Shown in pieces: positions 720 through 59,297 of a stretch of 64,000 bases of DNA. Where the stretch lies: NCBI GenBank assembly GCA_038087875.1, contig CM075988.1:17176001-17240000 (forward strand). Reading direction: 5' to 3'. Numbering within the stretch: the first letter of the stretch is position 1; the number at the start of each line of letters is the position of its first letter. Below the pieces are notes generated by a model. The model saw nothing but the letters and a program-made list of their open reading frames with translations, made no database searches and was not told the origin of the DNA. A program made the position numbers and the translations under genes. The stretch is from Malacoraja senta (Eukaryota).

Positions 720-932
720 AGACGGAATGCAGATGCTGGAAAATCGAAGGTACACAAAAAAAAGCTGTATAACCTCAGAGGGTGCAGCAGCATCTATGGA
801 TCAAAGGAAATAGGCAACGTTTCGGGACAAAACCCGTCTAAGGATGTGTTTCGGCCAAAAGCGTTGCCTATTTCCTTCGCTCCATAGATGCTGCTGCACC
901 CGCTGTGTTTCTCCAGTTTTTTTTTGTGTACC
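720..932. repeat. Inverted pair of Penelope-like terminal-repeat (pLTR) copies
   Basis: GCAGCAGCATCTATGGA..AAGGAAATAGGCAACG followed by its reverse complement; same sequence family as 39046-39145. Confidence 0.75.
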
Positions 933-3639
933 AGTCTCTCTGTCTCTCCCCTCTCTCTCTCTCTCTCTCTGCCCTTCTCTCTTCACAGCCCGCGGCTCAA
1001 CTCATGCACGCCCGCTGCAACCCCCCTTCACCTCTCTCCCCATCCTCTCCCCACCCCTCTTCTCTCTCCCCGTCCTCCCTCCCCCTTCCTCTCCCCCTCC
1101 TCACAATTTTTTTTTTCTAACATTAAATTTTCTCTCTCTGCCCCCCACCCCCTCGAGACGCACCTGAGAGGTGAGGGCTATTCGTCAGTGGATAGGGTGG
1201 AGATGGGATAAAAGAAGCAAATTAAAATATTAAGATAATATCAAGGGGTGTGATTTGTGTGTGTGTTTGTGGGTGCCAGATTCCCACCCCGCAACCGTGC
1301 TTTGGAGGAACAGACCCAACGGGTGGGTGGTTAGTGTGACGCCGCAGCCCCACCCCCCCCGCAAACGCACGTTGGGGATACAGACCCAACGGGTCTGCAC
1401 TTGGTCTAGTAACATATAAAAACAAATACATTTACACATATATAATATTTACAGCGTTTTGTTTTCTAGACATAACAAGATTACAAAAGGCATGTTTTCC
1501 AATTGCACATCATTAAAATTGTTTCAATTCCACTACTTTTGAAGGTCCAATTTATAATTTTTTGACTTCAGCATCTGTAAAGTTCAATATATATTTCAAA
1601 TCCCCTTTAATTGATATTTCACAGAACTGCGTGTGGGCATGTGCCACCATGTTATTGTACATTTCTATAAATACGTCATAATGGAGTTCATTTTTAATAC
1701 TTGTATGAGTTGAGAATGGCTTTCCAATGACTGAAGATGAGGATGACTTCCCAATTTCTTATCAGGTTGGGGTGATAATGAAACTGGACTGGAAGTATAC
1801 ATTGTGATAAGAGTCAAAAGCATTGGCAAGTGCAAACTGAACCCTTCTTCATTTTTTTAATTCGAAAGACAGCACTTCTGACAGCACAGCACTTAAATAC
1901 TAACTGTAGTGCTGATAGAAGCATGTGTTCAAGTCTCTCAGGTGTGACTTCAACTTGTAACCTTAGGATTAAAGATGGAAAATGCTGCAGTATTAACTAA
2001 GCCAGGCAGACTCTTTATTGGACTATAGAACATGATGTATCATGGTCTCACAAATTAATCTGAAATATCAATTTAAATGTTTTTTAATCCATAAAGAAAG
2101 GTTATAGATACTAACATTAAATACAAGTTAGATTTACAGAATTTTTAGAATTGCAATAATTATCAGGATTGGCAATTAGAAAACATGCCTTTCACAATCC
2201 TGGGATGACAGAAACATCTACAAAACCAAATATATTTTTAGAGTAGCCACTGTTATATACTGAAACAAATTTGCACACAGCAAAGCCCCGCAAACATTAA
2301 TAAGCTAACTGATCCTTTTCAGAGATGTTAAGAGGTACATTTTGAGAGAAAGCCAGGATACCTCCTTTTTAATTAAAATTGGCAAGGTTTTTCATGCTTT
2401 GTATGGTTCAAGTGTCTCAACCAAAAGAGCTATTAAATGGCTCATTAACAGATCCCGCATGGAGTAGTTTTGTGCACAGAAATTACACAACAATGCAATA
2501 GCAAATGGCCTATTACCTTCTGTTAAAAATGCAATCATAATTCACCTACAACAAATAAATCATTATTGTTTAGAAAGCTGTGGTCTATTTAGTCTAACAT
2601 TCATTTGCTGATAGAAAAAAATAATTTAAAAAAACTTAAATGGTCGCTCCACACCGAGACATCCATGCAGTAATGGCTGCCAAATCAACATCCACAAACA
2701 ATAGGATTAAGCAGGATTTGCAAGGTTACATGGATTTCTCACGCATTGATTTTATGGATACCACAGAGTTGTGCTGAATATTTGGTTCTCAACATGTAGG
2801 GTTCAGTCATGGCTGTTGAAAGTCAGAAACATTCACTGAGATTGTGAGAAACACTGCAAACTAAATACAACACATTGCACTCTTGAATTACCAGCAACAG
2901 GTAATCTTACCTAAAGACATATCTTCAGCAATTTCATTTATACTAAAAGCATTTTCCCAAAAGAAAATATTGAGCACAATAAAAGGGCCTTAAAATCTGT
3001 TTCAAACCTCTACAAGAAACTTTGAACAAGCAATAGACAGTTGTTATAGAAAATAACAGGTTAAATAAGAAAAGTTGTTTCCTGAACAACGACATTGCCA
3101 CCAACAAACACAGTGCTAATAAAATACTGCAGTCAAGATAACACTGCATATGTTTAGACTAAAAAGGCAAAGAATCAGAGCACTGGGTGATGTAGGGGAT
3201 TTGAATGAGATTTGTTTACTTCTGCAGCTTTGATTGAAATCAGCCAGTTTACCAAATTAGTTGAACTTTCTTTCTTTGCCAGTCCAAAAGGTCTATGTTG
3301 TACATTCCCAACTCTGGCTCTTGAATCCATGCTATATACCCTGCCCGCCTTTAAATTTACTGGAAGGATAAATGTTAGTGCCTTCTTCCAAGTCAGAATC
3401 AACTACCAGTTACACTCAAGATAACATTATGTAGACGTTCTCCCAACATCAGATTGCCAAAGGGACACTCAATTCTGTGCTGTCATGCGAACACATTACA
3501 TGGTAGACAGAGGAATAGTTCTAGCCTGCTTGAACAACTCCACTGGCTCCCGGAGATCCCTGGACCATGGATATTGAGGGTCGTAACACCATGCTAAATG
3601 CTCTTTATCCCCACCCCCCACTCAGTTTACGATTGTTCT

Positions 3640-5530: not shown

Positions 5531-6234
5531 AGAAGAATGGGGGGAACAGTCTGAAAAAGGGTCTCGACCCGAAATGTTGCCTATTTCCTTCGCTCCATAG
5601 ATGCTGCTGCACCCGCTGAGTTTCTCCAGCACTTATGTCTACCTTCGATTTTCCAGCATCTGCAGTTCCTTCTTGAATATAATATGTGAATGCTTCATTG
5701 AGCATAATTCCGACTGGTAACTACGCACTTCGTCTGAGCACATTATCGCACGCGTCATGCAAACCGTCTTAAATGACCACCTAAACTGTCATTTGGCAAC
5801 CTAAAAAGCTGTCAAGGTTGCCCGGCTGGCTACAGAGAAAAAAAGTTAAGTGAGAGCCCTGCTCCTCCTCTCATCTAACACCCTTTTTTCTTGTTTTCTC
5901 CTCTAGCCTTTCTCACTTACTCCACCTATCTGTGAATCAAAACCCCCTCACCTATTTCCACCCACTACTAGCCAGGCTTTGTCCTGCCCGCACCTTTCTT
6001 TTCCAGCTTTCTCTCTCTCCCCCCCTACTCGTATCAGTCTGAAGAAGGGTCCTAACCTCCCTAGATTCTGCCTGAGCCGCTCAGTTGCTCCAGTACTGTG
6101 TGTTTTGGACAAAATAAGAAATAGGAACAGAAGCCAACTGCATGAGTACATAACTTTGCTCTGCCATTCAATAAGATCACTGCACTAGGGTAAAGTTTTG
6201 AAGGCAGACAATTCCGATAATGCTTTCTTTCATT

Positions 6235-14600: not shown

Positions 14601-16579
14601 AGAAGACAAACTGCATTTGCCACAGATGATACTAAACTTGGGCCAAGGCTATAGAACTCCTGGCTAAGCAAAAGTTTTTAAAGTGTTGGAAAAACTCAGC
14701 AGGTAGAGAAATAGCTAATCTGTGGAGGGAGAAAAAGAGTTAACTTTTTTTCAAGTTAGTGACCTATCATCAGAACTTGGTAAAGTTAGAAAACATGTAA
14801 ATCTTAACACAGAGGAGGGAGGGGTGGAGAGAACAAAGGAATAATCTGCGACAGGGTGGAGACCAAAAAGAGATTATACAAATAATGATAGTTTTGCTAA
14901 TAAAGGGTAATGCATTCTGATTTATTCTGCAAATTATCTGTCTGGAAGACAGGCAAATGAAAGATGCAATGAGGGCAAAAGTGAAATAAAATATACTAGA
15001 ATATGAGACATGGAGCACTGCAATTGCTGTAAATCTGGAATAAGAGAGAAAAATTTTAAATATCATTGAGATCAGCATAATATCTGGAGTGAGAAAAACC
15101 GTTAGCATTGTGATTGATGACATTTCATCAGAACTGGCTGTAATGTAGCACTCAAAATATCAGATACTGTTCACCAGCTTAGAATGGGCTTCATTGGCAC
15201 AGTATAGCAGTGATATAATTTCAGATTTGCAGCATCCGCAATTTTATAAAAAATTGAATGGAAAAAGACTGCATCAATAAGTTTAGTTTTAATTTAATTG
15301 GGATCAAGACGGCGTCAGTCACTGGTCCAATGTTAGGCATACAAGACTGAAGAGTGATAACTGGGGGAAAGGTTTCACTGTGGTGTGGTGCCAAACTGTT
15401 TTATAAAGAATTGCAAATCCACCATGGGCATTGAGATGAATACAACATATCTTGGAAAATCACATGAATGATCACCAAATATCGTGGAATTAAAAACAAA
15501 ACAGTAAATGCTGGGAACATACATAACATTGACCAACATCTGTGGAGATACCAGAACACTAACCTGTAGAGTGTTTCCAGCCTTTTTCTTTTTTAGTTCA
15601 GATTTCTAACATCAAGTCTTTTGCTTGTGAAACAAAATAGGACGATTTCATTGAGGAGAGAGATGTCAACTGGCCATTCTTTCTATTGCCTAGGGCTTCC
15701 ATGCCGATCTACCTCTTTTTACTTAACAAGTTCCTTTAAGGCAAATTATTTGACCATGTTTTTTCATTCCTGTACATCTCCCAATATTTCCAATTTGTTC
15801 CATTTTGTCTAATATATGCTCTTGTAAAACACCCTGTAGCATTTTACAAAGCAACATAAATGCAAACAGTTGTCAAATTGTTTCAACACATTTATTTTAC
15901 CATTATTAAACAATTTTCATGAAGAATATTGGTACAGAATCCTTCCATACATCGCATCTTGAGTAATGCAGAGTTATTTTATATTTCCAACAATTTGATT
16001 ATTCCTGTGTTATTATTAATACTTTTGTGAATTGTATAATAAATGAACAAATAATTAAACACCCCTCCCATTTAATATTCTGTTTACAGTTCTGGAGAAA
16101 CATTTTTTTTCCAGAAATTTTTCGAGTGGAAAGTCAGTTGATATTGTTCTGTAATGTCAAAGTGGCTTTGTGATGTCGTTCCAGGCGAGTCATATGCTTA
16201 GCTTGAAACAAGCTATGGTTAATGTTTAAGAAACGCTACAAAAATAAAATCAGAAATTCTAGCCGTTGAACTCTTCCTGTTACCATGGAGCAAGAAGCCA
16301 TCACAAGGGATTAAAACCAATTGAACCTGTACTATTTGTCCATCTTACCAAAACTGGCTCTGCACTATATCGAACAACAATAGAACAATCACGTTCATTG
16401 ATTGTCAACAAGAAAACCACACAAGCATGTAATTACTAATGCCCAATGAAAAGGGTGGTTATATAGCGATATGTTGTTTTTTTAATGAGCAGTTAGGATT
16501 TTTAAGATATACCTTTGAATGTAATTTTCTCCACTTCTGAGGACGTTGTAGTATAGCTCCATAGCTTCTACCTATCTCA

Positions 16580-20039: not shown

Positions 20040-20530
20040 CGTGGGGGGGGGGGGGGCCTGTGGAAGGGGGGGGGAGGATAAGCCGGGCTCCGGGCTCCGG
20101 GGTGATGAGCTCCAACAGCCGGCGGTAACATAGCAACCGTGCGCCGCTTACCTGAGGCACGGGCCGGCGAGAGAGTGTCTACAGTACGCGGTGGCCGGGC
20201 TCCATCACCCTCGGGACTGCGTCCAGACCAGGCCGGGCGACGCAAGCCCCGCTCCGCCACCGCTGCCTCCCTAACGGGATAACTGTGGAACAGACAACAA
20301 CAACTGCACACATCTACTTCCGGTGCCGCAGCTCAAACGCCCGCCCCCAACTCCGCCTTCTGCGTCCATTGGTCAAAGCTCCTGTCAGTTACCTCCACCC
20401 CACATCCTGTATGGTCCGCACAACTGTCAGTAAAGTTCGCGGTGTACCCGCCCCCCCCCCCCCACTTCCGGCCCCCCGGCGTCATGAAAACCACTGCGCA
20501 AGCGCGATGGAGGCCGCTGGGAGTTGTAGT
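20040..20530. promoter_or_regulatory. CpG-island promoter
   Basis: CpG-dense. ETS ACTTCCGG at 20316 and 20464; GC box at 20341; CCAAT on minus strand at 20368-20372; NRF1-like TGCGCAAGCGCG at 20495-20506; ZNF143/THAP11-type ACTACAACTCCCAG (minus) at 20517-20530; X-box-like site at 20124-20137. Confidence 0.8.
20152..20315 (-). other. Probable non-coding first exon of a gene divergent to BACE1
   Basis: Consensus donor CAG|GTAAGC at 20152/20151 inside the CpG island. The ATG-initiated frame closes within the exon. Transcription start is approximate. Confidence 0.55.
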
Positions 20531-24489: not shown

Positions 24490-25010
24490 ATTCACTTGCA
24501 CCTCCTCCAACCTCATCTACTGTATCCGCTGTTCCAGGTGTCAACTCCTGTATATTGTCGAGACTAAGCGCAGACTCGGCAATCGTTTCGCTGAACACTA
24601 CCGCTCAGACTGTCTGCCTTAACCTACCTGATTACCCAGTTGCTCAGCACTTTAACTCCCCCTCCTATTCCCACACTGACTTTCCGTCCTGGGCCTCCTC
24701 CGTTGTCAGAGTGAGGCCCAGTGCAAATTGGAGGAACGGCACCTCATATTTTGCTTGGGTTGCTTCCACCCCAGCGGTATGAACATTGACTTCTCTAACT
24801 TCAAGTAGCCCTTGGTTTCCCTCTCTCTCCATCCCCTCCCCTTCCCAGTTCTCCCATCTGTCTTACTGTCTCCGACTATATTCTATCCCTGTACTGCCCA
24901 CTCTGACATCAGTCTGACGAAGGGTCGAAGACCCGACATGTCACCCTTTCCTTCTCTCCAGAGATGCTGCCTGTCCTGCTGAGTTACTCCATCATTTTGT
25001 ATTTACCTTA
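24490..25010 (+). mobile_element. Penelope-like 3' fragment (GIY-YIG remnant + pLTR)
   Basis: FTCTSSNLIYCIRCSRCQLLYIVETKRRLGNRFAEH followed by pLTR at 24908-25010. Confidence 0.85.
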
Positions 25011-25039: not shown

Positions 25040-26030
25040 AGGGGAAAGAGTGGAACAAGAGCTGGTGGTGGGGTTGTGTTGAAACTGCCAATAATGTCAG
25101 AGAATAATGTGGTGGGCTGAAAGGTAAGGACGAGGAGAACCCTATCCTAGTTCTATCTGGATGGGAGAGGAGCAAGAGTAGAATTGCAGGGAACAGAGGA
25201 GAAACGGATGCCGTAGAAGCGAAACTATCCACAACAGCGGGAAGGAAACCACATTTCGTGAAGAAAGATGACATCTCAGATGGCCCAGAGTGAGAGGACT
25301 TATCTTGAGAGCAGTTACAACAGGGTTGGAGAAACTGCAAGAAAGGAATGGCATCCTTGGTCCTTGTAAGCGACAGGGTGGGAGGTTGTCGAGGTAGCTG
25401 TGGGAGTCAGTGATTTTGCAATAAATGTCTTATGATAGTCTATCCCCTGAGTAGGAGGCAGAGATTAAGAAAGGAGAGAAAAGTATCAGAGATGGGTCAG
25501 ATTAATTCAAGGGCAGGGTGGAAGTTCATAGGATCATAAGTAATAGTAGAATTAGGCCATTCGGCCCAGCATGTCTACTCTGCAATTCAATCATGGCTGA
25601 TATATCTCTCCCTCCTAACCCCATTCTCATGCTTTCTCCCCATAAGCTCTGACACCCAAGTTGGTGGTGAAATTGATAGATTCTGCACAGATACAGGAGG
25701 CATCCACAATGCAGTTGGAGTTGGCCAGTGCAGTTGGAGAAAGAGTTGCGGAGTGGTGCCAGGTTATGTTTGGAACAAGGGGTGTTCGGCATGGCTAATG
25801 TACCCAATGAAAGGACAGGCAAAGCTGGGGCCCATGCAAGTCCAAGGCTGCACCTTTGAAGTGAGAGGGATCAAAAGAAAATTTGTTGGGAGCGATGACA
25901 AGTCCTGCCAGGTGGAAGAGAATGTTGGTTGAGGATAACTGATTAGGTCTCTGTTCTATGAACAAATGGAGGCCTTCCTAATGAGGAACGGATGTGTAAA
26001 GGGAGTGGGTGTCCATGGTAAAGGTGAGGT
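25040..26030 (-). mobile_element. Degenerate Penelope-like RT fragment interrupted by a CR1-type tail (about 25526-25655)
   Basis: Homologous to 39800-40630 (SSHSGPSEMSSFFTKCGF versus AFHTRASEMSSFFRERGF). Confidence 0.7.
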
Positions 26031-26312
26031 ATGTAGAACGGAACAGCAGATGCTGGTTTAAACTGAAGATGGACACAAAAAGCTGGAGTAACTCAGCAGG
26101 ACAGCATATTTTCCTTCTCTCCAGAGATGCTGCCTGTCCCACTGAGTTACTCCAGCTTTTTGTGTATAGATGATTGGAAGTAATTGGAAGTTATTGAAGT
26201 GGGTGGAGAATGTGCAAGATGTCCCAGATATAGCTTAGACCCGTCTGCTATATTTCATTTACACCTAGAAAAGTGACAAATGGAATTCAGTCTGGCAGAA
26301 TGAGGTAAGTAA

Positions 26313-32800: not shown

Positions 32801-34399
32801 GCAGAACCACCCCCAATTCCCCAAACAATAAACTAAGGTACCTGAGGGAAGGTTCACAATATGAGACGTATCAAGGCTGGCAAGATAATAGGATAAATTG
32901 TGAGGGAAATCAAGATGGATCAATTGGGTGATTGCAACCATGTTATTAAGCTGGAAAGAGTGCAGAGAAGATTTCCGAGGATGCCGCCAGGACTTGAGGG
33001 CCTGAAGTTGGGCAGGCTAGGACTTTATTCCTTGGGGATCAGGAGTCTGTGGGGTGATCTTTTGAAGATGTATAAAATCTTGTGGGGAATACATAGGATG
33101 AATGCAGGGTAGGGGAATCAAGAACCAGAGGGCACAAGTTTAAGGTGAGAGGGCCAAAATTTAATTGAAACCTCAGGAGTAACTTTTTAGACAATAGGTG
33201 CAGGAGTAGGCCATTCGGCCCATTGAGCCAGCACCGCCATTCAATGTGATCATGGCTGATCATCCACAATCATTACCCCTGTTCCTTCCTTCTCCCCATA
33301 TCCCCTGACTCCGCTATCTTTAAGAGCCCTATCTAGCTCTCTCTTGAAAGTATCCAGAGAACCTGCCTCCACCGCCCTCTGAGGCAGAGAATTCCACAGA
33401 CGCACAACTCTCTTTGTGAAAAAGTGTTTTCACACAGAAGGTGGTGGGTATATGGAATGGGGTGCCAGAGGAGGTAGATGAGGCAACTAGTTCATACCTC
33501 TAGTTTCTCTCTCCCCTGACTCGCAGCCTGAAGAAGGTTTCCGACATGAAACGTCACCTATTCCTTTTTTCCAGTGATGCTGCCTAGCCTGCTGAGTTAC
33601 TCCAGCACTTTGTGTCTATATTCTGCGAATGTATGCGTTTGGACTGGCAGGTTTTCAAGATTATCCCCAAAGAGGAATCAGAAGTGGTTCGGGGAGGCAC
33701 TTCCAGAGCTTGGGCACTGAAGACAGTTGCTGATATGAAGCAAATTCCCAAATGTGCAAGAGGCAAGAATTGATGTAGAGCAGTAGGTGCAGGGCTGGAA
33801 ATGCAAAAACAGCTATGTTCTGTTTACCACCTGTATATCATTGTATATATTTTATTTTTGGTTTCCTGTAGTGTGTTTGCCTGCGCAAGATTCAGTTGTG
33901 CTTTGAGTCATTATACAGGAAGAATGTTTTTGAACCGTGGAATATTTCAAGTGTGATGTTCATCGTCCTATTATTGCTGATGCTGCAATTTAGAATAATG
34001 ATTTTGGTAACATCTTAAGTGTCTATTTTTCCTCGAGTGTATTAGCATCAAGATAGCATGAAAAAAATCCTTCGAGCAGAAAGAATGTGAAAGTGGTTTC
34101 TGACACGCGAGGAAGCTTGTAAGATATTTAATCAGAGGTGCACACTTTTATCTCCGTTTTCCCAACTCCAAATCCCCTCCAAAGCAGCCAGTTAATTTTC
34201 AGTTTCCATGGCTATTTCTCTGCCACCTGTTGCTTTTGCTCATTGGTCATTAATCAAATGTTTTTATTGTATCGCAGATATTTAAAAATTAGACAGCGAC
34301 CATTCAACTCATTATGTCTGATTCAGCCGAAAATGTACTTTGGACTAATCTCATGTCAATCTTAGTTTGCAGTCCTGCAGGTTTTACTTCTACAACTGT

Positions 34400-36264: not shown

Positions 36265-37325
36265 GAATGAGCCCATTGTATTAGAGGGAAGATACTAGCA
36301 TGGATAGAAGGTTGACTGAAAGGCAGAAGGCAAAGGCTGGGAATAGAAGGGGCTTTTTCTGGTTGACTGCCAGTGACTAGTGGTATTCCGCAGGGGTCGG
36401 CGTTGGGGACACTCTTCTTCACGTTGTATATCAATGATTTGGATGATGGAATTCATTGCTTTGTGGCAATATTTAGAGTGATACGAAGATGGGTGGAGGG
36501 GCAGGTCGTGTAAAGGTCGTCTGCAGAAAGACTTGGACAGGTTAGGAGAGTAGGCAAAGAAGTGGCAGATGGAATACAGCATAGCACTTTGGTAGTAGAC
36601 TGTTTTCTAATTGGGGAGAGGATTTAAAAATCGGAGGTGCAAAAGGACTTGGGAGTGCTGGTGCAGGATTCCCAAAAGGTTCATTTACAAGTTGAATCGG
36701 TAGTAAGGAAGGAAATACAATGTTAGCATTTATTTTGAGAGGACTGGAATATAAAGGCCAGAATGTATGTAATGCTGAGGCTTTATAAAACACTGGTCAG
36801 ACTGCATTTGGAGTATTGAGAGCAGTTTGGGGTCCCATATCTGAGGAAGGATGTGCTGGTGTTGGAGAGGGTTCAGTGGAGGTTTACAAGAATGATCCCA
36901 GGGATGATTGAGTTAACAGAGCTTTTCATGGCTCTGGCCCAGTACTCACTGGTGTTTACAAGGGTGAGGGGGGACCACATTGAAACTTACTGAAGAGTGA
37001 AAGGCCTGGATAGAATGGATCTGGAGAGGATTTTCTACTAGTGGGAGAGTCTAGGACCAGAGGGCACAGCCTCAGAATAGAAGGATGTATCTTTAGACAG
37101 AGTATGGTGAATCTGTGGAATTCATTGCCTGTGGAGGCCAAGTCATTTGGGTATTTTTAAAGAGGAGATTGATAGATTCTTGATTAGTAAGGCTGTCGAG
37201 TGTTATGGGGAGAAGGCAGGAAAATTGAGGTTGAGAAGGATAGATAGATCAGCCATGATTGAATGGTGGAGTAGATTAGATGGGCCGAATGGTCTAATTC
37301 TGCTCCTATGACTTATGAACATGAA
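36265..37325 (+). mobile_element. CR1 LINE ORF2 3' fragment (decayed)
   Basis: [28 protein letters not shown] motif, CR1 C-terminal motifs and TATGAAC tail. Confidence 0.85.
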
Positions 37326-38782
37326 CACATAACTTGGATGGGAATCTGCAGGTAATGACAGTGCTTTTCTGTCAAATTATGAGCTGCTATGACATGGCAA
37401 GGGGTTTTATTTAAGGAGAGGCTGTGAACACGACTGACTATGCCACTGTGGAATGTATAGGGAATATCTAGTCATAGAATCGTACAGCAAGGAAACGGGT
37501 CTTTTGGCCAACACGCCAGTCCGTCTAAGATGCCCCATCTAAGCTTGTCCCATTTGCCTGCATTTGGCCAATAATCCCTCTAAACCTTTCCTATCCATGT
37601 ATGTACCTGTTAAAGTATCTTTTAAATGCTGTAATAGTATATAGCTCAACTACCTCCTCTGGCAGCTCGTTCCATGTGGTGGAAAAGTTGCCTCTGAGTG
37701 AAAAAGTTGCCCCTGAGATGCATATTAAATCCTGCCCTCTCTCACTTTAAACATAGGTCCTCTTATTTTTGATTCCCCTATCCTGGGGACTCTGCATTCT
37801 GTTCCTGTCATGAATGTATGAAGTGTTTTTGTTTTTGTTTTTGTTTTGTAGATATATTTGATTCTGAATGGAGTTTATATTTGAAATAAAAATAAATATT
37901 GGCTCCTCTAAACAGTTAAACATCATTATTTTGTTTTTCTGGCCAAGTGACATATGTTTATTGATTGTGCATACTAGCAGTATTTTATATCCAAAAACGC
38001 ACTGGGTAATGTAATTCTGCAGACGTTGGAATCTAAAACAAGAACAGAAATACTGGAAGAACTTGACCAGTCAAGCCACATCTATGAAAGAAAAAAGTAG
38101 TTAATGAGTCTGAGGAAGGTTTCCTGAACAAAAACCTCAACTGATTTCTTGTTCGACAAGTCTTGTTTGGATGAGTTGTTCCAGCATTTCTGTTTTTACT
38201 GCAGGTGGTGGTGTTCCTACTAACGTCATTCTAAATCTCATCTGGCAGGACGTTCTGAAGTTTTTATTGTGTGCAGCATGATGCAGAGAATTCCCAATTG
38301 CCTTCCTATACACATAAAGGAAGCACACCTCTAGATTCAGGGACAGTGTTTTCCCAGCTGTTAACAGGCAACTAAAACCATCCTATCACTAACCAGAGAG
38401 CAGTCCTGACCTCCCATCAACCTTAATGGAGTCCTTTGAACTATCCTTAATCGGACTTTACTGGACTTTACCACTAAACTTTATCCTGTATCTGTACACT
38501 GTGGACGGCTTGATTGTCAACATGTATAGCCTTTTTGCTGACTGGATAGCAGGCGACAAGTAAAAAAGCTTTTCATTGTACACGTAACAATATTAAAAAT
38601 TAAATTCAACTAAACTAATCTAAAGGGTCAATAAAGAGAAAGTCGTGTCATGGGATTGTTTCTGGGCCATATAAAGTTCATTTTCCTTCTTGCTAAATAT
38701 TTGAAAAGGGAATATTTGTGGAAGAACAACAGGGAAGTACAATTAATTTGTAGCTCTTCCCAAATGGCTAAATACGAAGATG

Positions 38783-39045
38783 TTCACTTGTACCTCCTCC
38801 AACCTCATCTACTGTATCTGTTGTTCAAGATGTGGACTCTTATACATCGGCGAGACCAAACGCAGATTGGGCGATCATTTCGCGGTACACCTTCGCTCAG
38901 CCTGTGTGAACCAACCTGATCTCCCAGTTGCTGGACACTAATTCTCCTACCCATTCCTACACAGACCTTTCTGTTCTCAGTCTCCTCCATTGTCAGAGTG
39001 AGGCTAAATGCAAATTGGAGGAACAGCATCTCATATTTCGCTTGG
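38783..39045 (+). mobile_element. Penelope-like GIY-YIG fragment abutting the large element tail-to-tail
   Basis: FTCTSSNLIYCICCSRCGLLYIGETKRRLGDHFA...KLEEQHLIFRL. Confidence 0.85.
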
Positions 39046-41790
39046 TACACAAAAATGCTGGAGAAACTCAGCGGGTGCAGCAGCATCTATGGAGCGAAGG
39101 AAATAGGCAACGTTTCGGGCCGAAACCCTTCTTCAGACTGATAGGGGGTGGGGAGAAGAAAGGAAAAAAGGAAAAAAGGCGGAGGAGGAGCCCGAGGGCT
39201 GGGGGAGGGGAGGAGACGACCAGAGGGCTGATGAAGGGGAGGGGACAGCAAGGGCTAGCAGAATTGGGAGAATTCAATGTTCAAGCCCCCAGGATGTAGA
39301 CTGCCCAAGCGGAATATGAGGTGCATTTCCTCCAATTTCCGGTGTTGCTCGCTGTGGCCATGGAGGAGACCCAGGACAGAGAGGTCAGATACGGAATGGG
39401 AGGGGGAGTTGAAGTGCTGAGCCACCTGGAGGTCAGGTTGGTTATTGCGGACCGACCGGAGGTGTTCGGCGAAACGATCGCCAAGCCTCCGCTTGGTCTC
39501 ACCGATGTAGATCAGCTGGCATCTAGAGCAGCGGATGCAATAGATGAGGTTGGAGGAGATGCAGGTGAACCTCTGTCGCACCTGGAACGACTGCTTAGGT
39601 CCTTGAATGGAGTCGAGGAGGGAGGTGAAGGGACAAGTGTTGCATCTCTTGCGGTTGCAAGGGAAAGTACCCGGGGAGGGGGTGGTACGGGAGGGAAGGG
39701 AAGAATTGACAAGGGAGTTACGGAGGGAGCGGTCTTTGCGGAAGGCAGACATGGGGGGAGATGGGAAGATGTGGCGAGTGGTGGGGTCACGTTGGAGGTG
39801 GCGAAACCGACAGAGGATCACTTGTTGTATGTGACGGCTGGTGGGTTGAAAGGTGAGGACTAGGGGGACTCTGCCCTTGTTGTGAGTGGGGGGATGGGGA
39901 GATGGGGAGAGAGAGCAGTGTTGCGGGGTATGGCAGAGACCCTGGTGCGAGCCTCATCTATGGTGGAGGAGGGGAACCCCCGTTCCCTGAAGAATGAGGA
40001 CATTTCGGATGCCCTGGTGTGGAACGCCTCATCCTGGGAGCAGATGCGGCGTAGACGGAGGAATTGGGAGTGGGTGATGGAGTCCTTACAGGAAGCAGGG
40101 TGGGAAGAAGTGTAGTCCAGATAGCCATGGGAGTCGGTAGGTTTGTAGTGGATGTCGGTAAGAAGTCTATCACCTGCGATGGAGATAGTGAGGTCAAGGA
40201 ATGGTAGGGAAGTGTCGGAAATGGTCCAGGTGTATTTGAGTGCCGGATGGAAGTTGGTGGTGAAGCGGATGAAGTCAGTCAGTTGTGTGTGGGTGCAGGA
40301 TGTGGCACCAAAACAGTCATCGATGTAGCGGAGGTAGAGGTCGGGGATGGGGCCCTGGTACGCATTGAACAAGGATTGTTCTACGTACCCGACAAAGAGG
40401 CAGGTGTAGCTGGGGCCCATGCGTGTGCCCATAGCTACGCCTTGTATTTGGAGGAAATGGGAGGAGTCAAATGAGAAGTTATTGAGGGTAAGGACCAGCT
40501 CCGCTAGGCGGAGGAGGGTGTCGGTGGCCGGGTATAAGTTGCTTCTTCGGTCGAGGAAAAACCGGAGGGCTTCGAGACCATCCTGGTGGGGGATGGAGGT
40601 GTACAATGACTGGACGCCCATGGTGAAGATGAGGGGGTGAGGGCCTAGAGAGTGGAATGCGCGGAGTCGACGGAGAGTGTCTGAGGTGTCTTGAACATAG
40701 GGAGGGATTTAACCAAGGGGGATAGGATGGAGTCGAGGTGGGTGGAGATGAGTTCGGTGGGGCACGAACAGGCAGAGACAATGGGTCTACCGGGACAGTC
40801 AGGTTTGTGGATTTTGGGGAGAAGGTAAAAGCGGGCCGTGCGGGGCTGGGGAACGATGAGGTTGGAGGCTCGGTCGGGCAGGGAGTGGGAGTGGATGAAG
40901 TCGGTGATGGTGCTGGAGATGGTGGCCTGGTGCTCGTCAGTGGGGTCATGGTCCAGGGGTAAGTAGGAGGTGGTGTCCGAGAGTTGGCGCGTGGCCTCAG
41001 CTTTGTAGAGATCGACGCGCCAGACTACCACGGCACCTCCCTTGTCGGCGGGTTTGATAACCCAATCTAGGTTGTTGCGGAGTGAGTCGATGGCAGTGCG
41101 TTCAGGGGGATAAGATTGGAGTGAGACAGGGGAGTGGAGAAGTTGAGGCGGTTGATGTCACGGCGGCAGTTTTTGATGAAGAGTTCTAAAGCCGGAAGGC
41201 TACAAGGGGGGTTCCACGAGGAGGGGGTGCGTTGGAGACGGGAAAAGGGGTCATCAGTGGGGGGCGAGGACTCCTTCCCATGGAAGTGAGCTGTGAGGCG
41301 GAGGCGACGGTAGAAGCGTTCCAAGTCATGGAGGGCGCGGAACTCATTGAGGTGGGGACGGAGGGGGACAAAGGTAAGACCTCTGCTGAGGACAGGCCGT
41401 TCGATGTCGGAGAGGGGGAGGTCGGGGGGGATGGTGAACACCCGGCAGGGATGGGGGTTGGGGCCGGAGGAAGGCAGGTGGACGGAATGGGGACGAGGCA
41501 ATGTGTGGTGGGTGGGGGGGTGAGAGGGCTGTAGTGTGGGTGGGGAAGAGAAGGGGTCCCATAGTTGGAGAAGGATGGGGAAGAATCAATGGAACTAACA
41601 CTGAGGTAACCAGGGCTAGGCAGACTAGCACTAGGACCCAGTGGAGTCAAACCCAGGGGAGTGGGAGTGAGCAGCGTGGAGGCTTCAGGCCCAGTACAGA
41701 GACCAGTCTGAAGAAGGGTCTCGACCCAAAACGTCACCCATTCCTTTTCTCCAGAGATGCTGAGTTACTCCAGCTTTTTGTATCTATCTA
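39046..41790 (-). mobile_element. Penelope-like retroelement (probably Neptune group), near full length, frameshifted
   Basis: Collinear ORF pieces: LSRGLTFVP (41067-41501); IKPADKGGAVVVW, FYLLPKIHK and PGRPIVS (40645-41065); GVAMGTRMGPSY and YLRYIDDCF (39860-40621); CNRKRCNTC linker and GIY-YIG LIYCIRC..IYIGETKRRLGDRFAEH (39255-39821). 3' pLTR at 39046-39145 and inverted pLTR at 41703-41790. Confidence 0.93.
39109..39136 (-). ncRNA. Minimal type I hammerhead-ribozyme-like motif in the PLE 3' repeat
   Basis: CTGAAGA-A-GGGT(TTCG)GCCC-GAAA-C-GTT: CUGANGA and GAAA boxes, stem II, palindromic AACGTT stem III. Stem I is only about 2 bp, so activity is uncertain. Confidence 0.6.
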
Positions 41791-42096: not shown

Positions 42097-43567
42097 TCAT
42101 TGAGAAAGTTGTCCTCCAGCAACTTAATCACTTCCTGGCTTCAACTGGCTGCTACGACAACTTCCAGTCAGGATTTCGACCTCTTCATAGCACTGAGACC
42201 GCCCTTATTAAAGTTGTAAACGACATCCGTCTTAACACAGACTCTGGCAAAGTTTAAATATTAATGCTATTAGACCTCAGTGCTGCATTCGACACTGTTG
42301 ATCACTCAATACTTTTGGACAGGTTGGAAAAATGGGTGGGGCTTTCAGGCACAGTCTTAAGTTGGTTCAGGTCATATCTACAAGATAGGAACTGTTTTGT
42401 TTCCATTGGCGACTTTGTATCAGAACCAACCAACGTGATGTATGGAGTCCCACAAGGTTCGATCTTAGGGCCCTCTTTATTCAACATCTACATGCTCCCA
42501 CTAGGGCAAATCATGCGAAATAATAATATTGACCACCACTGCTATGCCGATGACACTCAAATCTATGTAGCGCTATCACCAAATGACTATCGCCCCATAG
42601 ATCTGCTGTGCCAGTGCATTGAGCAAGTCAAAGACTGGATGTGCCAAAATTTCCTCCAACTAAATAAGGACAAAACGGAGATAATTGTTTTTGGTGCTAA
42701 AAAAGAAAGGCTTAAAGTAACCCAACACCTTCACTCTCTGTCCCTGAAAACTTCAAACAAAGCCAGAAATTTCGGGGTTATTATGGATTCAGATTTACAT
42801 TTCGACAGTCACATCAAATCAGTAACAAAATCGGCCTACTATCACCTCAAAAACATAGCAAGACTAAGAGGACTCATGTCAGCTCAAGACTTAGAAAAAC
42901 TTGTACATGCCTTTATTACTAGTAGGCTAGATTATTGTAACGGTCTCCTTGCAGGTCTTCTGAAAAAAACTGTCAGGCAGCTACAGCTTGTTCAGAACGC
43001 TGTTGCTAGAGTTCTAACAAAGACCACAAAATTTGAGCACATTACACCAATTCTTAAATCCTTACATTGGCTCTCTGTATGTCAGAGAATTGATTTCAAA
43101 ATCCTGCTGCTCACCTATAAATCACTACATGGTTTAGGGCCAAAGTATATCACTGACATGCTTCCACTATATAAGCCTTCTAGACCGCTAAGATCTTCTG
43201 AGACCAATCTGTTAGTGATTCCCAGAGTAAATACAAAACATGGGAAAGCAGGATTTAGTTACTATGCAACAAATAGCTGGAATAAACTTCCTGAAGATTT
43301 AAGACTTGCCCCTACTTTCACCACTTTTAAAACAAGACTGAAAACTTTTATGTTTACTTTAGCTTTCAGCTAAATCTTAACTCCATTGCACTTTTAACTT
43401 TTGCACTTTTCTATAATGCATTTTTAACTTTGCTTTTATTTTATTTTAATTCTTCTATTTTATTTCATTTCATTATTTCATTTTATTGTATGACATGTTT
43501 TTATGTGAAGCACTTTGAGTCTGCCTCGTGTATGAAATGTGCTATATAAATAAAGTTGCAGTTGCAG
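42097..43567 (+). mobile_element. L2 LINE, 5'-truncated, with open 369-aa RT C-terminal ORF (42264-43373)
   Basis: QSGFRPLHSTETAL, LLDLSAAFDTVDH, GVPQGSILGP, YADDTQIY, ITSRLDYCN; tail TGCTATATAAATAAA-(GTTGCA)2. Confidence 0.93.
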
Positions 43568-44023: not shown

Positions 44024-45207
44024 AAGTCAAGTCAAGTCAAGTCACATTTATTTATATAGCACATTTAAAAAAACAACTCTCGTTGGCCAAAGTGCTTTAC
44101 ATTTGTTATAAGAATAATATAAACAAACAAACTACATACATATATACATATAGCCCTCGCTCAGAGGATGTCAAGAAAGGCTTGGGAGTATAGATACGTT
44201 TTTAGTCTTGACTTAAAGGAGTCGATGGAGGGGACAGTTCTGATGGGAAGGGGGATGCTGTTCCACAGTCTAGGAGCTGCAACCACAAAGGCGCGGTCGC
44301 CCCTGAGCTTATGCCTAGACCGCGGGATATTCAGCAACCCCAAGTCGGCCGATCTGAGGGACCTGGAGGTGGAGTGGTGGGTGAGAAGACTTTTAATGTA
44401 GGTGGGGGCAAGCCCATTGAGGGCTTTGTAGACATAGAGGAGGATCTTGAAATGTATACAGAACTGCACAGGGAGCCAGTGGAGAGAGGCCAGGATCAGG
44501 GTGATGTGGTCCCTTTCTCGTGTGCCCGTCAGGAGTCTCGCTGCGGCGTTTTGGACCAGTTGCAGGCGGGACAGGGAAGATTGGCTGATGGTTGCAGTAA
44601 TCTAGGCGGGAGGAGATAAATGTGTGGATGATCTTTTCGAGGTCCTCAAAGTGGAGGAATTGTTTTATTTTAGCTATCGTCCGAAGCTGAAAGAAGCTAG
44701 CTTTTACCACGGCATTGACTTGTTTGTCAAATTTCAGTGCTGAGTCAAATATCACGCCAAGGTTTTTGACGTGAGGTTTGAGTAGTGGGGTAAGGCTTCC
44801 AAGGCTGCCTGCTATCATTTTGATTGAGTCAGAGGGGCCGAGAAGGATGACCTCAGACTTACTCTCGTTTAGTTGGAGGAAGTTCTGGGCCATCCAACAC
44901 TTTATATCCTCGAGGCAGCGGGTAAGGTTAAGCAGATTTGATTGTTTTTTGGGCTTCAGGGGGAGATAGAGTTGTGTATCGTCTGCGTAGTAATGGAAGG
45001 AAATGCCGTGCCTTTCAATGACTTGGCCTAAGGGGAGCATATACAGGGAGAAGAGAATGGGGCCAAGGATGGAGATTAGCTGGGGAGGAGAAAGAGTTGC
45101 CTATGTTAGTCGAGAAACTCCTACCTTTGAGGTAGGAGATGAACCAGCTCAGGGCAGTGCCATCAATACCAACCCCGTACCGGAGACGGTCAATTAGGAT
45201 GGTGTTA
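44024..45207 (-). mobile_element. L2 LINE, second family, 5'-truncated with internal deletions
   Basis: YADDTQLY, NFLQLNESKSE, FISSRLDYCN; (GACTT)n tail. Confidence 0.92.
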
Positions 45208-51330: not shown

Positions 51331-54300
51331 GCAAAAGCCATAAAGCCATAAAAGATTCCAGCAACTGCAGTTCCTTCTGTCTCGCTTTGTTGTCTGTTGC
51401 CTAGTCAACTTCATATCTTTGCTTTCAATATTCCTTTTGTTGTCATGAATTTAAAGTTATTTTATTCCAAAGAAGTGCACTTGTTGATCTTCAACTCCAA
51501 GTGGACGATTTCAATAAATGATTGATATGTGGTTGTAAAACGTATCTGAGACTTCACAGATATAAATGTGTTGGTATCTAAGGGGAATTTATATAGTAAA
51601 TTCGACAAAAATTTAAGAGTGGGTTTAGATTAATATTCTGGAATTTTTCTTGACAAAGTTTAGGGTTTGAGATAAAATTTAACCAATAGCTTTAAGATCA
51701 GAGGGGAAAACCATAAAGGAGATGTGCAGGGCAAGCTTTTTTTTCACAGAGTGGGAAGGAACATGCTGCCAGTGGTGGTGGTAGAAGCAAATATAACAGT
51801 GGCATTTAAGAGGTTTTTAGATTGGTACGTGGATATGCAGGGAATGGAGTGATATGGATCACATGCAGGCAAAGGTGATGAGTTTAATTTGGCTTCATGT
51901 TCAGCACGAATATTGTGGGCCAAAGAGCTTATTCCTGTGCTGCACTGTTCGATGTTAATAAAAATATTTTGAAAAATTGCAGGCAACCAAGCAATCTATG
52001 AGATTTGGCTTTGCTCAAAACACCTGCCACAATTTACATGCGTAACAGTAGTCAATGCACTGTAATAATTTATAGATTATATAGCACATTAAAATATCAT
52101 TGAGAGTCATGATAATCTATTGTATAAATGTTTCATTTATTTTCTGAAAAATCCGCTTACTTCATGTCTTTAGTTGTAAAACTGCAAGACTGGAAAACCT
52201 ACTGAAGTATGCAACAGTGATTTGATGCTGACAGTATGAACAATTAACAGATAAATGCATTATCGTAACATGGAAATGAAATCATTCCACTAATAAAACT
52301 CTGCCTCATTAACAACATGAGATTCCCTTCTCAACGATCCAAATAGAGAATCAAATATAATCAGTTTGATTCTTATGTGGATATGATCATCTCATTTATA
52401 ACTTTGGCTTTTTAAAAATAAATAAATGACTCCTTCCGCAATCCAAAATGAATGATTGTGGATTAATTACATCTTATTTCTCTATTTTGAACACATTCTA
52501 AAAGCCAAATAATCTTTATTTTGTGGTGTTTAATTCTATGAATCACGGAAGTAAAATTGAATTCCTGGAGGGAGGGTTCGGACTGAAGATGAATGGGCTA
52601 AACGGCCTTTACTTAGCAGGGATTATATAGAATGGGGCCCTTTCTTTCCACCCAAGTACCACACTGGTGCTCTGGACTATTTGTAAGGGAATGGGGAAAA
52701 AGCAGGGGGAATGGGACTGCCCCCAACATTTCCCCATGCCCTTGTCCGCATTTGAGGTAGTGGTTGTGAGTTTGGGAGGTGCTTCAGAGTAGCTGTGCAA
52801 GTAACAGCTATGCATTTTGTAGATGGTAAGCATTGTAGCCTCTGTCCGGGGGGTGGAAGGACAAATGTTTAGAATGGTGAATAGTATGCTGTAAGGGATG
52901 GAAATTGTTGCAAAATCTCGGGACAAATTCAGTTTGCATTATCAATTCTGCACTTCTTGCTGAATGTGGTTACGAATGTTCAGCCTTGTCTCAATGCCCC
53001 GGGATGGATGTCAGAAAACCCTCAGAATTAAAGGACTTCTTTTAGGAAGGAGATGAGGAGACATTTATTTAGTTAGAGGGTGGTGAATCTGTGGAATTCC
53101 TTGCCACAGAAGGCTGTGGAGGCCGTCAGTGGATCTTTTTAAGGCAGAGATAGATAGATTCTTGATTAGTACAGGTGTCGGAGGTGGTGGGGAGAAGGCA
53201 GGAGAATGCGGTTAGGAGGGAGAGATAGTTCAGCCATCATTGAATGTGGATTAGACTTGATGGCCTAATTCTACTCCTATTGAGGCCTAATTCTACTTCT
53301 CCTGATAAAAACATATCCATTCTGCATTCAGATTCTGTCCTAGGACTATTCAACCTTGTTACTGTGATTTCCGTTTGTCATTTACTCGTGCATAGGGTGT
53401 CGATGTTGCTGATGACGCCAGTATTTATTAACCATCCGAATTACCCCTGAAGTGGCAGCTCAGTGCCGACTACCTTAAGTGTCTGAAGTCACACATAGGC
53501 CAGACTGGGTGAGGGGAGACAGCTTCAGTTTTTCTGAACGACATTAGTGAACCAGATGGGATTTTTGTGACAATCTGACACTTTCACTGTTCCTGTCAAT
53601 CGTTAAATTCGGAGTTATTAAATTATTTCCATCCAGTTGAAATTCCAGCTCATGTCCCTGTATCAGTGGGTCAGAACGTTGGCTGATAGCCCAGTGACGT
53701 ACCGACACCACTGCCATACCTCTGACCAAAACCTTCACCGAGGCTTCTGATTAAATAAAAATGGGACACAGATCTATTTTTATACCCATTGTTTCCTGTC
53801 ACATTTTTGTTTTTGTTTTTAAAAAGCTGCAGTCATCTTCTAAGAATCCTTTTGTGGTGCTGGTAACCATGGTGAGAGTGGCAGAAATGTGACCAGTTTA
53901 TAAACGGCAAATTAAGCAACAAAATGGATGGGGTGTATTGAAATAAATGTCAAACTCAATAAAAGCTGCTTTTCCTAAATGCGGCAGTCCTTCTGCTCAA
54001 GCTGTTGTCAGGAGGGATTTCCAGCGCTTTGACCCCACAACGACGAAGGAAACTATTTCCAAGTCAAGGATTGTGTGTGAGTTGGAGTGAGCCTGCAGGT
54101 GGTGGCTCCTGCTGCCCTTGTTCTACTCTGTGGTAGAGGTCTGAAAGGTCCTGCCCCTCTTCTCTTCCAGCTTCTCCCCCCCCACCCCCCCATCCCTCCT
54201 CCGACAATCAGTCGAAGTAGGGTCCCAACCCAAAACTTCACACTTCTATGTTCTCCAGAAATGCTGACTGGCCTCATCTCCAGTACTTTGTTTCTTTTTC

Positions 54301-55521: not shown

Positions 55522-57448
55522 TAAGTACAAAACTCTTTGCCATTGCGATAAAATTGCATTGACCGTCCTAAAGCAGCACGCTTCCACATCCTTGCCCCCC
55601 TGTGCAAGACCAACAGCCTGATTCATGGCCAGTTAGAATAAGTGTGGGAAAGGGAAAAGACTGCAACAGAGAAGTCAGGGAAAGATGATGGAGTTGGTTG
55701 GTGGGCATTACAACGTTTCCACATCCAAGACCGAGAAAATTAAGAGAGCTTCTAGCAACTCTTATATAGACAATAGGTGCAGGAGTAGCCATTCAGCCCT
55801 TCGAGCCAGCACCGCCATTCACTGTGATCATACCTGATCATCCACATTCAGTATCCCGTTCCTGCCTTCTCACCATATCCCCTGACTCTGCTATCTTTAA
55901 GAGCTCTATCTAACTCTCTCTTGAAAGCATCCAGAGAATTGGCCTCCACTGCCTTCTGAGGCAGGGAATTCCACAGATTCACAACTCTCTGGGTGAAAAA
56001 GTTTTTCCTCATCTCCGTTCTAAATGGCTTGCCCCTTATTCTTAAACTGTAAGTCTAAACAACCTTTCACCTTCAAGTATGCCAATGGGATAAACGCTTA
56101 ATTGCCTTCACAGCTCGGGGGCAATTAGGGCTGGATAAATAATTGGCAAATAAATAAAATACTGCAGCTCCCAACCCGAGGAAGAAGAAAGGATGTTACT
56201 AAAGAAGATATATAATTACTATAGAGTCATTGTAACCAAGATTTACCAGACTGGTTCCTAGGGTGGAAGTGTGTAAGAAGGAACTGCAAATGCTGGTTTA
56301 TAGCAAAGATAGACACAAAATGCTGGAGTAACTCAGCGGGTCAAGCAGCATCTCTGGAAAAAAGGAATAGGTGACGTTTCGCGTCAATGATTCGGAGTCT
56401 GAAGAAGGGTCTTGACTTAGAGAGCTTCCAGCAACTCTTATATAGACAATAGGTGTAGGAGTAGCCATTCAGCCCTTCGAGCCAGCACCGCCATTCACTG
56501 TGATCATAGCTGATCATCCACATTGGGGTTTTTGCAGAGATGCTGCCTGATCCACTGAGTTACTCCAGCATTTTGTGTCTATTCTGGAATGGAAGGACAG
56601 TCATATAAGAGGAGACTGGGTCAACTAGGGAAGTATTCACTATATATTAGCAGAATGAAGGGAGATCATTGCACTTGGAGAAGTGGGAATTGATCATGGG
56701 TGGTCATCATGGCTTTGTTAAGGGGAGATCCTGACTGACTAAATTATTTAGAAGTAAAAACAAGGGCCTGCAGATGCAGTATTGCAGATTGCAGTATGAA
56801 GAAGGGTCCCGACCTGCAACCTCACCTATCCCAAGTTCTCCAGGGATTCTGCCCGACCCGCTGAGTTTCTCCCAACATTTTGTGTCTTTCCTGACAAAAA
56901 AATAGTATTTTTTGAGCTGGTAACTCAGTGTGAAAATAAAGGTTGTTACATAGGATTCAATAAAGCTTTTGACAGGGTTCCATATGAGAACCCATGAGGT
57001 TCAAAATTGGTTTGATGATAGGAATCAGAGGATGATAGTCAAGAGAAGCCTGTGACCTGTAACTTATCACAAGTTTTGAAGTTCAAATTGCTGCTCTTTG
57101 TTATGTTCAATCTGCTTGTGAATGATTAATAGTTGTGATGAATAAATTCATAGATTATAGTTGTTGTTGATAGTGAGGAGGGCGGTCTTTGGCTGCAGAA
57201 TGATATTGATCAGTTGGTCGGAAAGGAATGGCCAAGGACAATTAATCCTGACAAATGTGAGATGATGTGCTGTGGGAAGTCTAATGAGGCTAAAATATAC
57301 ACCGTAGGAAGTATTGTATTTGTACACTGTGGATGGCTTGAATGTAATTGTATTGTCTTTCCATTGACTGGTCAGCATGCAAAAAAAGTGTTTTCACTTT
57401 TCTATCCACAAATATCTGACCAAGATGAAGAATGCCAGCACTGGTACA

Positions 57449-57575
57449 GTCTGAAGGTTTCGGCCCGAAACGTTGCCTATTTCCTTCGCTCCATAGATGC
57501 CGCCTCACCCACTGAGTTTCTCCAGCATTTTTGTCTACCTTCGATTTTCCAGCATCTGCAGTTCCTTCTTAAACT
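57449..57575 (+). mobile_element. Solo pLTR-derived insertion with 9-bp TSD
   Basis: ACTGGTACA at 57440-57448 and 57576-57584 flanks one pLTR unit. Confidence 0.75.
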
Positions 57576-58155
57576 ACTGGTACATGGCTGATGTTTTCTG
57601 CCTAAGTTTAGCATTAAGACAGTGTTGAGAACCATAATTTGTTGGCTCTACATGTTGCAATGTTAGGTTATTGTAGTGAGGACATGAGTTAAACTGGTGC
57701 CGCGTCCATTGGCAGAAGGGAGACATCTTGGTGACCTTGTTCGAGAGTGAAGGAAGTTTAAGCGACCAAAAGTGAACTGTTCAGGGTAAAGCATCTGGCC
57801 CTGCGACTTGATCAATTCTTCGCAGGAGTCTCAGGGGCTGTCGACCCACAGTCAGAGCTGTACTATATGTCCCAATGATTGGCATACTTACTCTGAGCCA
57901 GAAGGTGGGGGGTTTGGTTCCCTGACTGAGGCGTGAGCACAACTGTATCGGCGGACACTACGGTACATAATTTGCATCTTATCAAAAGCCTTCTGAAAAT
58001 CAGATTCTTGATTAGTAAGGGTGTCAGGGCTTATGGGGCGAAGGCAGCAGAATGGGGTTGAGAGGGAAAGATAGATCAGCCATGGTTGAATGGCGGAGTA
58101 GACTTGATGGGCTAAATGGCCTAATTCTGCTCCTCGAACTTATGAACATGAGTGC

Positions 58156-58892
58156 ATCACTGATGGAGTGCCACACTGCTGGAGTGCCACACTGCTGGAG
58201 TGCCACACTGCTGGAGTGCCACACTGCTGGAGTGCCACACTGCTGGAGTGCCACACTGCTGGAGTGCCACACTGCTGGAGTGCCACACTGCTGGAGTGCC
58301 ACACTGATGGAGGTGCCACACTGATGGAGTGCCACACTGATGGAGGTGCCACACTGATGGAGGTGCCACACTGATGGAGGTGCCACACTGATGGAGGTGC
58401 CACACTGCTGGAGTGCCACACTGATGGAGGTGCCACACTGATGGAGGTGCCACACTGCTGGAGTGCCACACTGCTGGAGTGCCACACTGATGGAGTGCCA
58501 CACTGCTGGAGGTGCCACACTGCTGGAGTGCCACACTGCTGGAGTGCCACACTGATGGAGGTGCCACACTGATGGAGTGCCACACTGATGGAGGTGCCAC
58601 ACTGATGGAGTGCCACACTGCTGGAGTGCCACACTGCTGGAGTGCCACACTGCTGGAGTGCCACACTGCTGGAGTGCCACACTGATGGAGTGCCACACTG
58701 ATGGAGGTGCCACACTGATGGAGGTGCCACACTGATGGAGGTGCCACACTGATGGAGTGCCACACTGATGGAGTGCCACACTGATGGAGGTGCCACACTG
58801 ATGGAGGTGCCACACTGATGGAGGTGCCACACTGATGGAGTGCCACACTGATGGAGGTGCCACACTGATGGAGTGCCACACTGATGGAGGTG
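58156..58892. repeat. Minisatellite, 16/17-bp unit GTGCCACACTG(C/A)TGGA(G)
   Basis: About 44 homogeneous tandem units. Confidence 0.97.
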
Positions 58893-59297
58893 CTACCTCT
58901 CAGATCAGACCAAACCACGATCCATTTTCTCTCTCAGGCAGTGTCAAATATCCAACTTGTTTCCTCCTCACTATCCAACAAGAAAAAAATATACCAATGA
59001 TGTGCTTGCTATCATTTTGTTATTAATGAGTTTATTTTGCATAAATTGTCTACCATGTTTCCTGTATTAAACTAATTACTATTTTAAAATAAACACTTGT
59101 TTATGAGATAGAGGTTGTAAAATGTGATAATTAAGTGCGAATCCCTACGTTACATCGGCTGACACTCAGTCCTTCCCTGAGGACGTGCGGCAGCAGTGGA
59201 AGCGCTGATTTTCCACCACGCTCTAAACTGAGAGCATTCTTTGCCTATTCAGGCAGGAAATTTACTGAAGGGACAGGCAGCATCTCTGGAAATGAGT

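Follow-up and report, generated by a model that had tools for sequence, protein, structure and literature searches.

Minimal type I hammerheads occur in the Neptune, Poseidon and Xena elements of fish, and an extra A, a G10.1-C11.1 pair and a palindrome are given as general traits of the hammerheads of metazoan Penelope-like elements (PLEs) in the available text of Cervera & De la Pena 2014 (PMC4209133), where no cartilaginous fish is named as a PLE hammerhead host. Cleavage of dimers was reported by Luense et al. 2017, as cited in a review (PMC6765202). In PAc, a Poseidon element of Anolis carolinensis (Frangieh et al. 2024, PMC11167929), RT was described as beginning internally on the RNA, at two sites by which the tail is defined, and both DNA strands were extended. 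The anole hammerhead cleaved only with the protein, hammerhead mutants still inserted, and no RNA-seq reads ended at the cut. The transcription start of PLEs was placed within the pLTR (PMC2377424), and an Inr-like TCACT was reported for the pLTR of Adineta (PMC3846280). A linker with the motif CX2-5CxxC was reported to mark the Neptune and Nematis clades and to be missing from Penelope and Poseidon (PMC8557442, PMC3846280).

Here, one PLE was analysed within a stretch of 64,000 nt from the skate Malacoraja senta (the window; contig CM075988.1, forward strand). The element belongs to an already described kind, and so do its insertion marks and ribozyme. The account that we favour, and regard as probable, is that the locus holds a dead Neptune-type copy, and that the abundant short repeat of the window consists of pLTR ends left by the parents' own copying from an uncut template, with no separate element involved. 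No paper on a skate or shark PLE hammerhead was found in a search that had most subscription journals as well as Repbase and Dfam outside its scope, and novelty is not implied.

A dead Neptune-type copy and an inverted cap

The PLE body, which was 5'-truncated, inactivated and of subfamily A, was delimited at 39046..41704 (minus strand) by tblastn homologs and family reads. The homolog alignment spanned 41528-39261 in four pieces in differing frames, and reads of the family (four public runs at 88% likeness, including one RNA run) covered the body up to about 41695. The N-terminal part of the RT ORF lay at 41106..41528 (minus, 60% to homolog P0002) and was followed by a second piece with the PLE DKG motif, IKPADKGG, at 40693..41109 (minus, 71% to P0002). 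Comparison with homologs placed the RT core and thumb at 39902..40708 (minus), with the motif A FTMGVQSLY and an intact YIDD. The linker, with CNRKRCNTC (CX4CX2C), and the GIY-YIG endonuclease occupied 39255..39899 (minus; by Pfam, motif and alignment) and ended at a TAG stop (39257-39255). The endonuclease matched Pfam PF01541 with E=2e-4 and 22 bits, just below the cutoff of 22.6, and the three RT pieces had no Pfam match to RT even at E 1. Downstream of the stop were a pyrimidine-rich 3' UTR (39140..39254, minus; 95% pyrimidine in the 40 nt ahead of the motif) and a tail-less 3' pLTR end unit of 94 nt (39046..39139, minus), at the end of which the family reads run on into the tail.

Full-length relatives of 908-957 aa aligned to the element only from residue 176-231, and about 200 of their N-terminal residues were unmatched. 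The tblastn alignments also changed frame near 41106, 40700 and 39900, which makes at least three frameshifts. In RT motif A, the Asp present in 109/110 homologs was Gly in the element; since nearly all of the family read depth carried the other letter at 40617, this change is private to the copy. No direct upstream pLTR was found at the locus. The element had been called autonomous in the first-pass annotation; because of the frameshifts, the loss of the motif A Asp and the missing direct upstream pLTR, this truncated copy is not autonomous but dead. In all three contig runs, family read depth climbed from 5' to 3' along the ORF and jumped at the pLTR bins, where the jump mixes subfamilies and gives no copy number. 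In one run (X24), first mates lay about 2-6 times more often in the ORF sense direction in most ORF bins, which would mean antisense RNA if a common stranded protocol was used.

The order of a PLE-type RT with the DKG motif and, at the C terminus, a GIY-YIG endonuclease is that of an EN+ PLE, and at the family level the pLTR with a hammerhead, the optional tail and the inverted 5'-truncated partner were found as well. The CX2-5CxxC motif of the Neptune clade was present between RT and endonuclease in the element and in 95/99 endonuclease-bearing homologs; the other clade with this motif, Nematis, is not known outside nematodes. In a tree of 49/110 homologs, which contained no named clade references, the RT grouped with two bamboo shark proteins (100/95). 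The closest named proteins were from bamboo shark (64-67%) and from skates (74-87%, across portions of the endonuclease). The element resembled the described Neptune clade in its RT-linker-endonuclease layout, the DKG motif, the 5' truncation, the inverted pLTR and the optional tail of 30-40 nt (Craig et al. 2021, PMC8557442; Arkhipova et al. 2013, PMC3846280), but differed in that this copy is dead and that its cap and body come from separate subfamilies. No relative of the element was found among viral contigs by protein or by motif.

The inverted pLTR end unit lay at 41705..41790 (plus strand); it was tail-less and started at the hot spot of copy 5' ends described below. The first-pass annotation had the 5' end capped by an inverted pLTR, and such a unit is indeed present, but it is not the element's own: it had 83% identity to the 3' pLTR of the element over 60 nt, carried 5/7 diagnostic words of the other subfamily (B) and 0/7 of the element's, and contained a broken core (G12 to A) and a short deletion. 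Thus, the inverted partner at this locus is of another subfamily than the body; both are tail-less, unlike the other head-to-head pairs. Body and cap may be the two arms of a single insertion, with another RNA as the template for the cap. Alternatively, an older B-type copy on the plus strand, split by the A-type body with a loss of about 200-250 nt, could have left the cap as its 3' end, a serious possibility that we nevertheless hold somewhat short of even. The remainder of that copy would be a GIY-YIG fragment at 38778..39045 (plus), which ends exactly at the 3' end of the element. This fragment was 71% identical to the element and 80% to the copy at 24491, and reads from it continued into its own subfamily's endonuclease. 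The two flanking pieces are both non-A, on the plus strand and in the correct order; no target-site duplication was found at the outer junctions (a 7-nt shared word lay 20 nt away), and PLEs were reported to prefer insertion into older PLE copies (PMC6765202). Such a split, however, requires an ad hoc deletion and leaves the cap beginning exactly at the hot spot, like the tail-less arms of other head-to-head pairs.

Beyond the cap, LINE-like RT frames with a YADD motif, putatively L2/CR1-like, were seen at 42258-43373 (plus, 371 aa) and 44393-45100 (minus, 235 aa).

The hammerhead motif and its relatives

A minimal type I hammerhead was identified at 39103..39142 (minus) by its sequence pattern, a core check and covariation. 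The core lay at 39136-39130, the extra A at 39129, stem II at 39128-39117 and GAAA at 39116-39113, followed on the 3' side by the CG palindrome, the GUU triplet and the predicted cut at 39109|39108; the minus strand of 39136..39109 read CTGAAGA-A-GGGT-TTCG-GCCC-GAAA-CG-TT. A hammerhead-like motif about 120 nt past the GIY-YIG stop had been annotated at first, and the distance from the TAG stop to C3 was 118 nt with the motif intact. The nucleotides C3, U4, G5, A6, G8, A9, G12, A13 and A14, the A15.1-U16.1 pair and H17 were found with zero mismatches at 39139 (11/11 core positions), together with a 4-bp stem II and the CG palindrome. The 27-nt hammerhead pattern had seven matches in the window and none in 100 shuffles; a scan of the window at the Rfam gathering threshold gave 0 matches. 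With the hammerheads of metazoan PLEs (PMC4209133), the element shared the CUGANGA box, the extra nucleotide between 9 and 10.1, the G10.1-C11.1 pair, the palindromic 15.2-16.2 and mostly solitary, dispersed copies. The extra A had been noted as a known variant; it was indeed already published, but as the norm of this group.

Stem I of the element consisted of a U.G and a G-C pair, a 2x2 loop with A.C and C.U mismatches, and then U-A and A-U pairs. Its two adjacent pairs agreed with the earlier count of about 2 bp but were not odd, as helix I of the D. virilis Penelope also has 2 bp, and an engineered form of that hammerhead cleaved weakly (PMC4209133). Stem I is at the weak end of the range, with precedent. 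The schistosome stems were given as 7-8 and 4-5 bp in the same source, compared with 4 bp in stem II and 2 bp plus the 2x2 loop in stem I of the element.

Related loci were taken from metagenomes (the best 80 of 540), and 68 of them had at least 150 nt downstream. The same layout was found 100-280 nt past the endonuclease match in 21 of these 68, as against 1/68 in antisense and 0/1,360 in shuffles. Although the search pattern demanded one stem I pair only, 19/21 of these motifs had at least 3 stem I pairs, in six sequence forms. The compensatory changes that the first-pass annotation had proposed to look for were found in stems I and II: the covariation score was 0.57, compared with 0.22 when shuffled and at most 0.14 when the structure was slid, over 16 chosen rows (5 from the window and 11 related) that are related to one another, the 11 having been selected with a pairing-dependent pattern. 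Changes on both sides were seen in 42 cells across these rows, stem II was paired in 95% over the same selection, and the inner stem I pairs formed in 16/16 and 14/16. Given this choice of rows, the covariation lends support to the predicted stems but no probability. The subfamilies of this genome itself showed one-sided stem changes only. From the sequence comparison, the motif of the element is judged to be homologous with those of its relatives, not a chance match.

It is unlikely, in our estimate, that the ribozyme is catalytically dead in the lineage of the element and that the motif survives solely as a promoter or as a signal for protein binding. Such a loss would fit a stem I weaker than that of most related motifs, copies that derive from uncut RNA (see below), and the predicted monomer fold, in which the core was buried and the stem II pair probability was at most 0.01. 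However, 2/5 related motifs likewise folded badly as monomers, and the four motif sites that differ between subfamilies A and B were all tolerated ones (the loop, two wobble pairs and H17). The 2-bp helix I of D. virilis and the anole motif that cleaves only with protein also speak against it. Monomer folding was dropped as a discriminator between live and dead motifs since the related motifs scored low too. Unconstrained co-folding produced a stem II/III duplex and no active dimer model, and from the hammerhead topology a dimer would not mend stem I, because the same two strands form it in monomer and dimer. Neither at the cut nor at the motif edge was there a pile-up of RNA read ends in one fragmented poly(A) library, which came from another organism and of which about 6% was read.

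In a copy of a distant subfamily at 14680-14777 (minus), the core read CTGATGA and stem I, with 4 bp (AGTT/AACT), was stronger than that of A or B.

The short repeat and its subfamilies

The pLTR-end repeat was the largest family in the window, with 37 linked intervals by self-BLAST compared with 22 for the runner-up, and its 44 profile matches covered 3,398 bp, or 5.3% of the window. The end sequence of the element is thus the commonest short repeat here, as had been claimed at first, but the element is not its parent: only 5/44 matches, the element included, belonged to subfamily A, and the remainder were B-type or more distant. Another parental lineage was represented by a 5'-truncated B-type PLE at 24491..24998 (plus), which retained endonuclease, 3' UTR and pLTR end, with the endonuclease fragment at 38778-39045 as a further non-A piece. 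Within subfamily A, the nearest short copy (5548..5677, plus, 94%) and the copy at 57447..57574 (plus) both started at the hot spot and had a tail, and a head-to-head pair at 749..933 had a tail on one arm. The copies formed a series of truncations that bore the insertion marks of PLEs rather than a defined separate element, and the "non-autonomous offspring" of the first-pass annotation was not supported as stated. Overall, the abundant repeat of about 95-130 nt looks like pLTR ends that stem from several PLE subfamilies related to one another, as judged from their sequences. Motif decay was counted in 22 alignable copies out of 30 (8 were dropped as truncated or misaligned): G12 had changed to A, a CpG change, in 10/22, and core, stem II and palindrome together were kept in 2/22 only.

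The window also contained an old GIY-YIG fragment at 3704-3891, 63-69% identical to other endonuclease pieces, and a decayed RT of another PLE subfamily at 25188-26215 (minus), which was split by a second repeat and adjoined a head-to-head pLTR pair. Members of the second commonest repeat family, that with 22 linked intervals, included 33105-33485, 36830-37341, 53020-53280 and 55743-56050, among others. Minisatellite-like arrays were seen at 58002-58896 and 5027-5530, the first with long stop-free frames on both strands. A G+C-rich stop-free stretch at 19661-20332 is possibly a CpG island or the first exon of a host gene.

The short copies, or stubs, might instead form a true non-autonomous family of SINE-like or retrozyme-like kind, transcribed by itself, with the PLE protein copying it in trans and rare tandem dimers as sources; we consider this improbable. 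The sharp 5' boundary and the high copy number would suit a family of its own, and for Adineta, pLTRs were reported to be capable of acting in trans (PMC3846280). In three runs, 16-25 contigs per run contained a joint that led from 39044 to 41704, and these possible head-to-tail junctions might, like those of retrozymes, come from tandem dimers of unit length. Moreover, animal non-LTR retrozymes were derived from pLTRs in a preprint (bioRxiv 10.64898/2026.07.22.740005), which describes type I hammerheads and includes one chondrichthyan case. The chondrichthyan retrozyme consensus in that preprint, however, averages 363 bp, compared with about 95 here, and retrozymes are tandem arrays with intact motifs, whereas the copies in the window were dispersed or head-to-head, about 95-130 nt long and mostly broken in the core. 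No tandem array of units with intact hammerheads was found in the window, where one loose tandem neighbour pair (46-nt gap) stood against seven head-to-head pairs. The stubs also share subfamilies with the ORF-linked ends, which like the truncation series disfavours a SINE-like origin, and the unit ends lie off the cut site, unlike the prediction for a ribozyme-processed circle.

Ends of the copies and a proposed copying route

The 5' ends of copies were concentrated at TCAGTC (39136..39141, minus), as identified by the copy census and by loose ends at the equivalent positions 41704-41706. Among 44 matches, 10 reached into the UTR, 17 started within 6 nt of the motif edge and 17 started further inside; the census profile begins near this edge, so that the pile-up is partly built in, and the copies at 24911 and 57454 were misclassed in opposite directions. 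The ends clustered 2-4 nt ahead of the ribozyme core and not at the cut site, within 3 nt of which 3 copies started compared with 2.2 expected. The loose ends 41704-41706 were among the six best-supported ones in each of the four runs, and the cut site was not among them; those at 41705 and 41706 had patternless AT-rich flanks. Most pLTR copies of the related loci reached at least 100 nt upstream, and only three (L005, L044 and L048) began near the edge. TCAGTC is initiator-like, presumably a match to the Inr consensus, and it is also a YAG after a pyrimidine tract.

At the other end, a tail of about 30 nt was found on 14/42 copies, compared with a background of 1%, and the 3' ends in the related loci fell into two classes, +86-96 and +143-149. 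In 5/7 of the head-to-head pairs exactly one arm was tailed; in the sixth the other arm stopped early, and in the seventh no tail was found. Five related loci (L023, L030, L044, L048 and L059) contained an inverted pLTR copy, and their 3' ends fell into two classes separated by about 50 nt. In tailed copies such as 5548-5677, the unit sequence AGATGCTG was complementary to the tail sequence CAGCATCT, and the two formed a long helix in the predicted fold. This helix is a candidate for the feature by which the two sites of RT initiation are set. In the pair at 26828 there were matching changes on both sides of the helix, which CpG decay could also produce.

Since the 5' ends lie ahead of the core and not at the cut, the copies were made from uncut RNA, and because the stubs contain the whole uncut ribozyme, cleavage was no part of their production. 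RT stalling at the ribozyme helices was ruled out by reasoning, as the copies include the whole motif. Most simply, the ends at the edge would be run-off copies of a transcript that starts there. It is quite improbable that the hot spot is instead a 3' splice site or a protein-bound RT block: a pyrimidine tract followed by CAG|T does lie directly ahead of C3, the intron end in D. virilis Penelope was mapped to the 5' end of helix I (PMC4209133) and splicing could, as proposed there, supply a different and stronger stem I, but the edge copies had no upstream exon sequence in common, no intron-type joint ended there among 15 of 1,765 joints, and related loci lacked an AG ahead of the motif.

Under the favoured account of pLTR ends copied by the parental PLEs, the hammerhead in the 3' pLTR would be a family heritage that constraint maintains in active lineages. 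The RT-endonuclease would bind the pLTR RNA and start RT inside it, about 92 or 125 nt past the motif start, as modelled on the anole PLE. Priming in the downstream pLTR would yield long, variably truncated copies, and priming in the upstream pLTR would lead to run-off at the RNA 5' end (TCAGTC), just ahead of the hammerhead, and hence to a short stub. Two primings at one break would give a head-to-head pair; an antisense template with self-priming was also proposed for such forms (PMC3846280). Cleavage would be slow, protein-dependent or dispensable for copying, and the stubs would decay neutrally after insertion.

The skate element shared with PAc (PMC11167929) the two 3' end classes one tail apart, the whole ribozyme within the copies and the failure to see RNA ends at the cut. 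PAc belongs to another clade, however, and its ORF starts inside the ribozyme, whereas N7 of the element is an A and gives no AUG. The sharp 5' boundary of the short copies was seen here, and none is described in the available text on PAc. We tentatively propose, with less assurance than for the account as a whole, that the transcript of the skate PLE starts 2-4 nt ahead of the core and that internal priming in the first pLTR mass-produces a stub of fixed length.

Our results suggest that a major repeat of the skate should be annotated as PLE pLTR ends. The sharp 5' ends ahead of the cut back in vivo the in vitro result from the anole that cleavage is unneeded for copying. If the proposed start and priming are true, they would be a way in which a SINE-like repeat, about 5% of the window, can arise without a non-autonomous element. 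Many dated copies would then record an uncut template, and the purpose of the PLE hammerhead would become testable from genomes alone.
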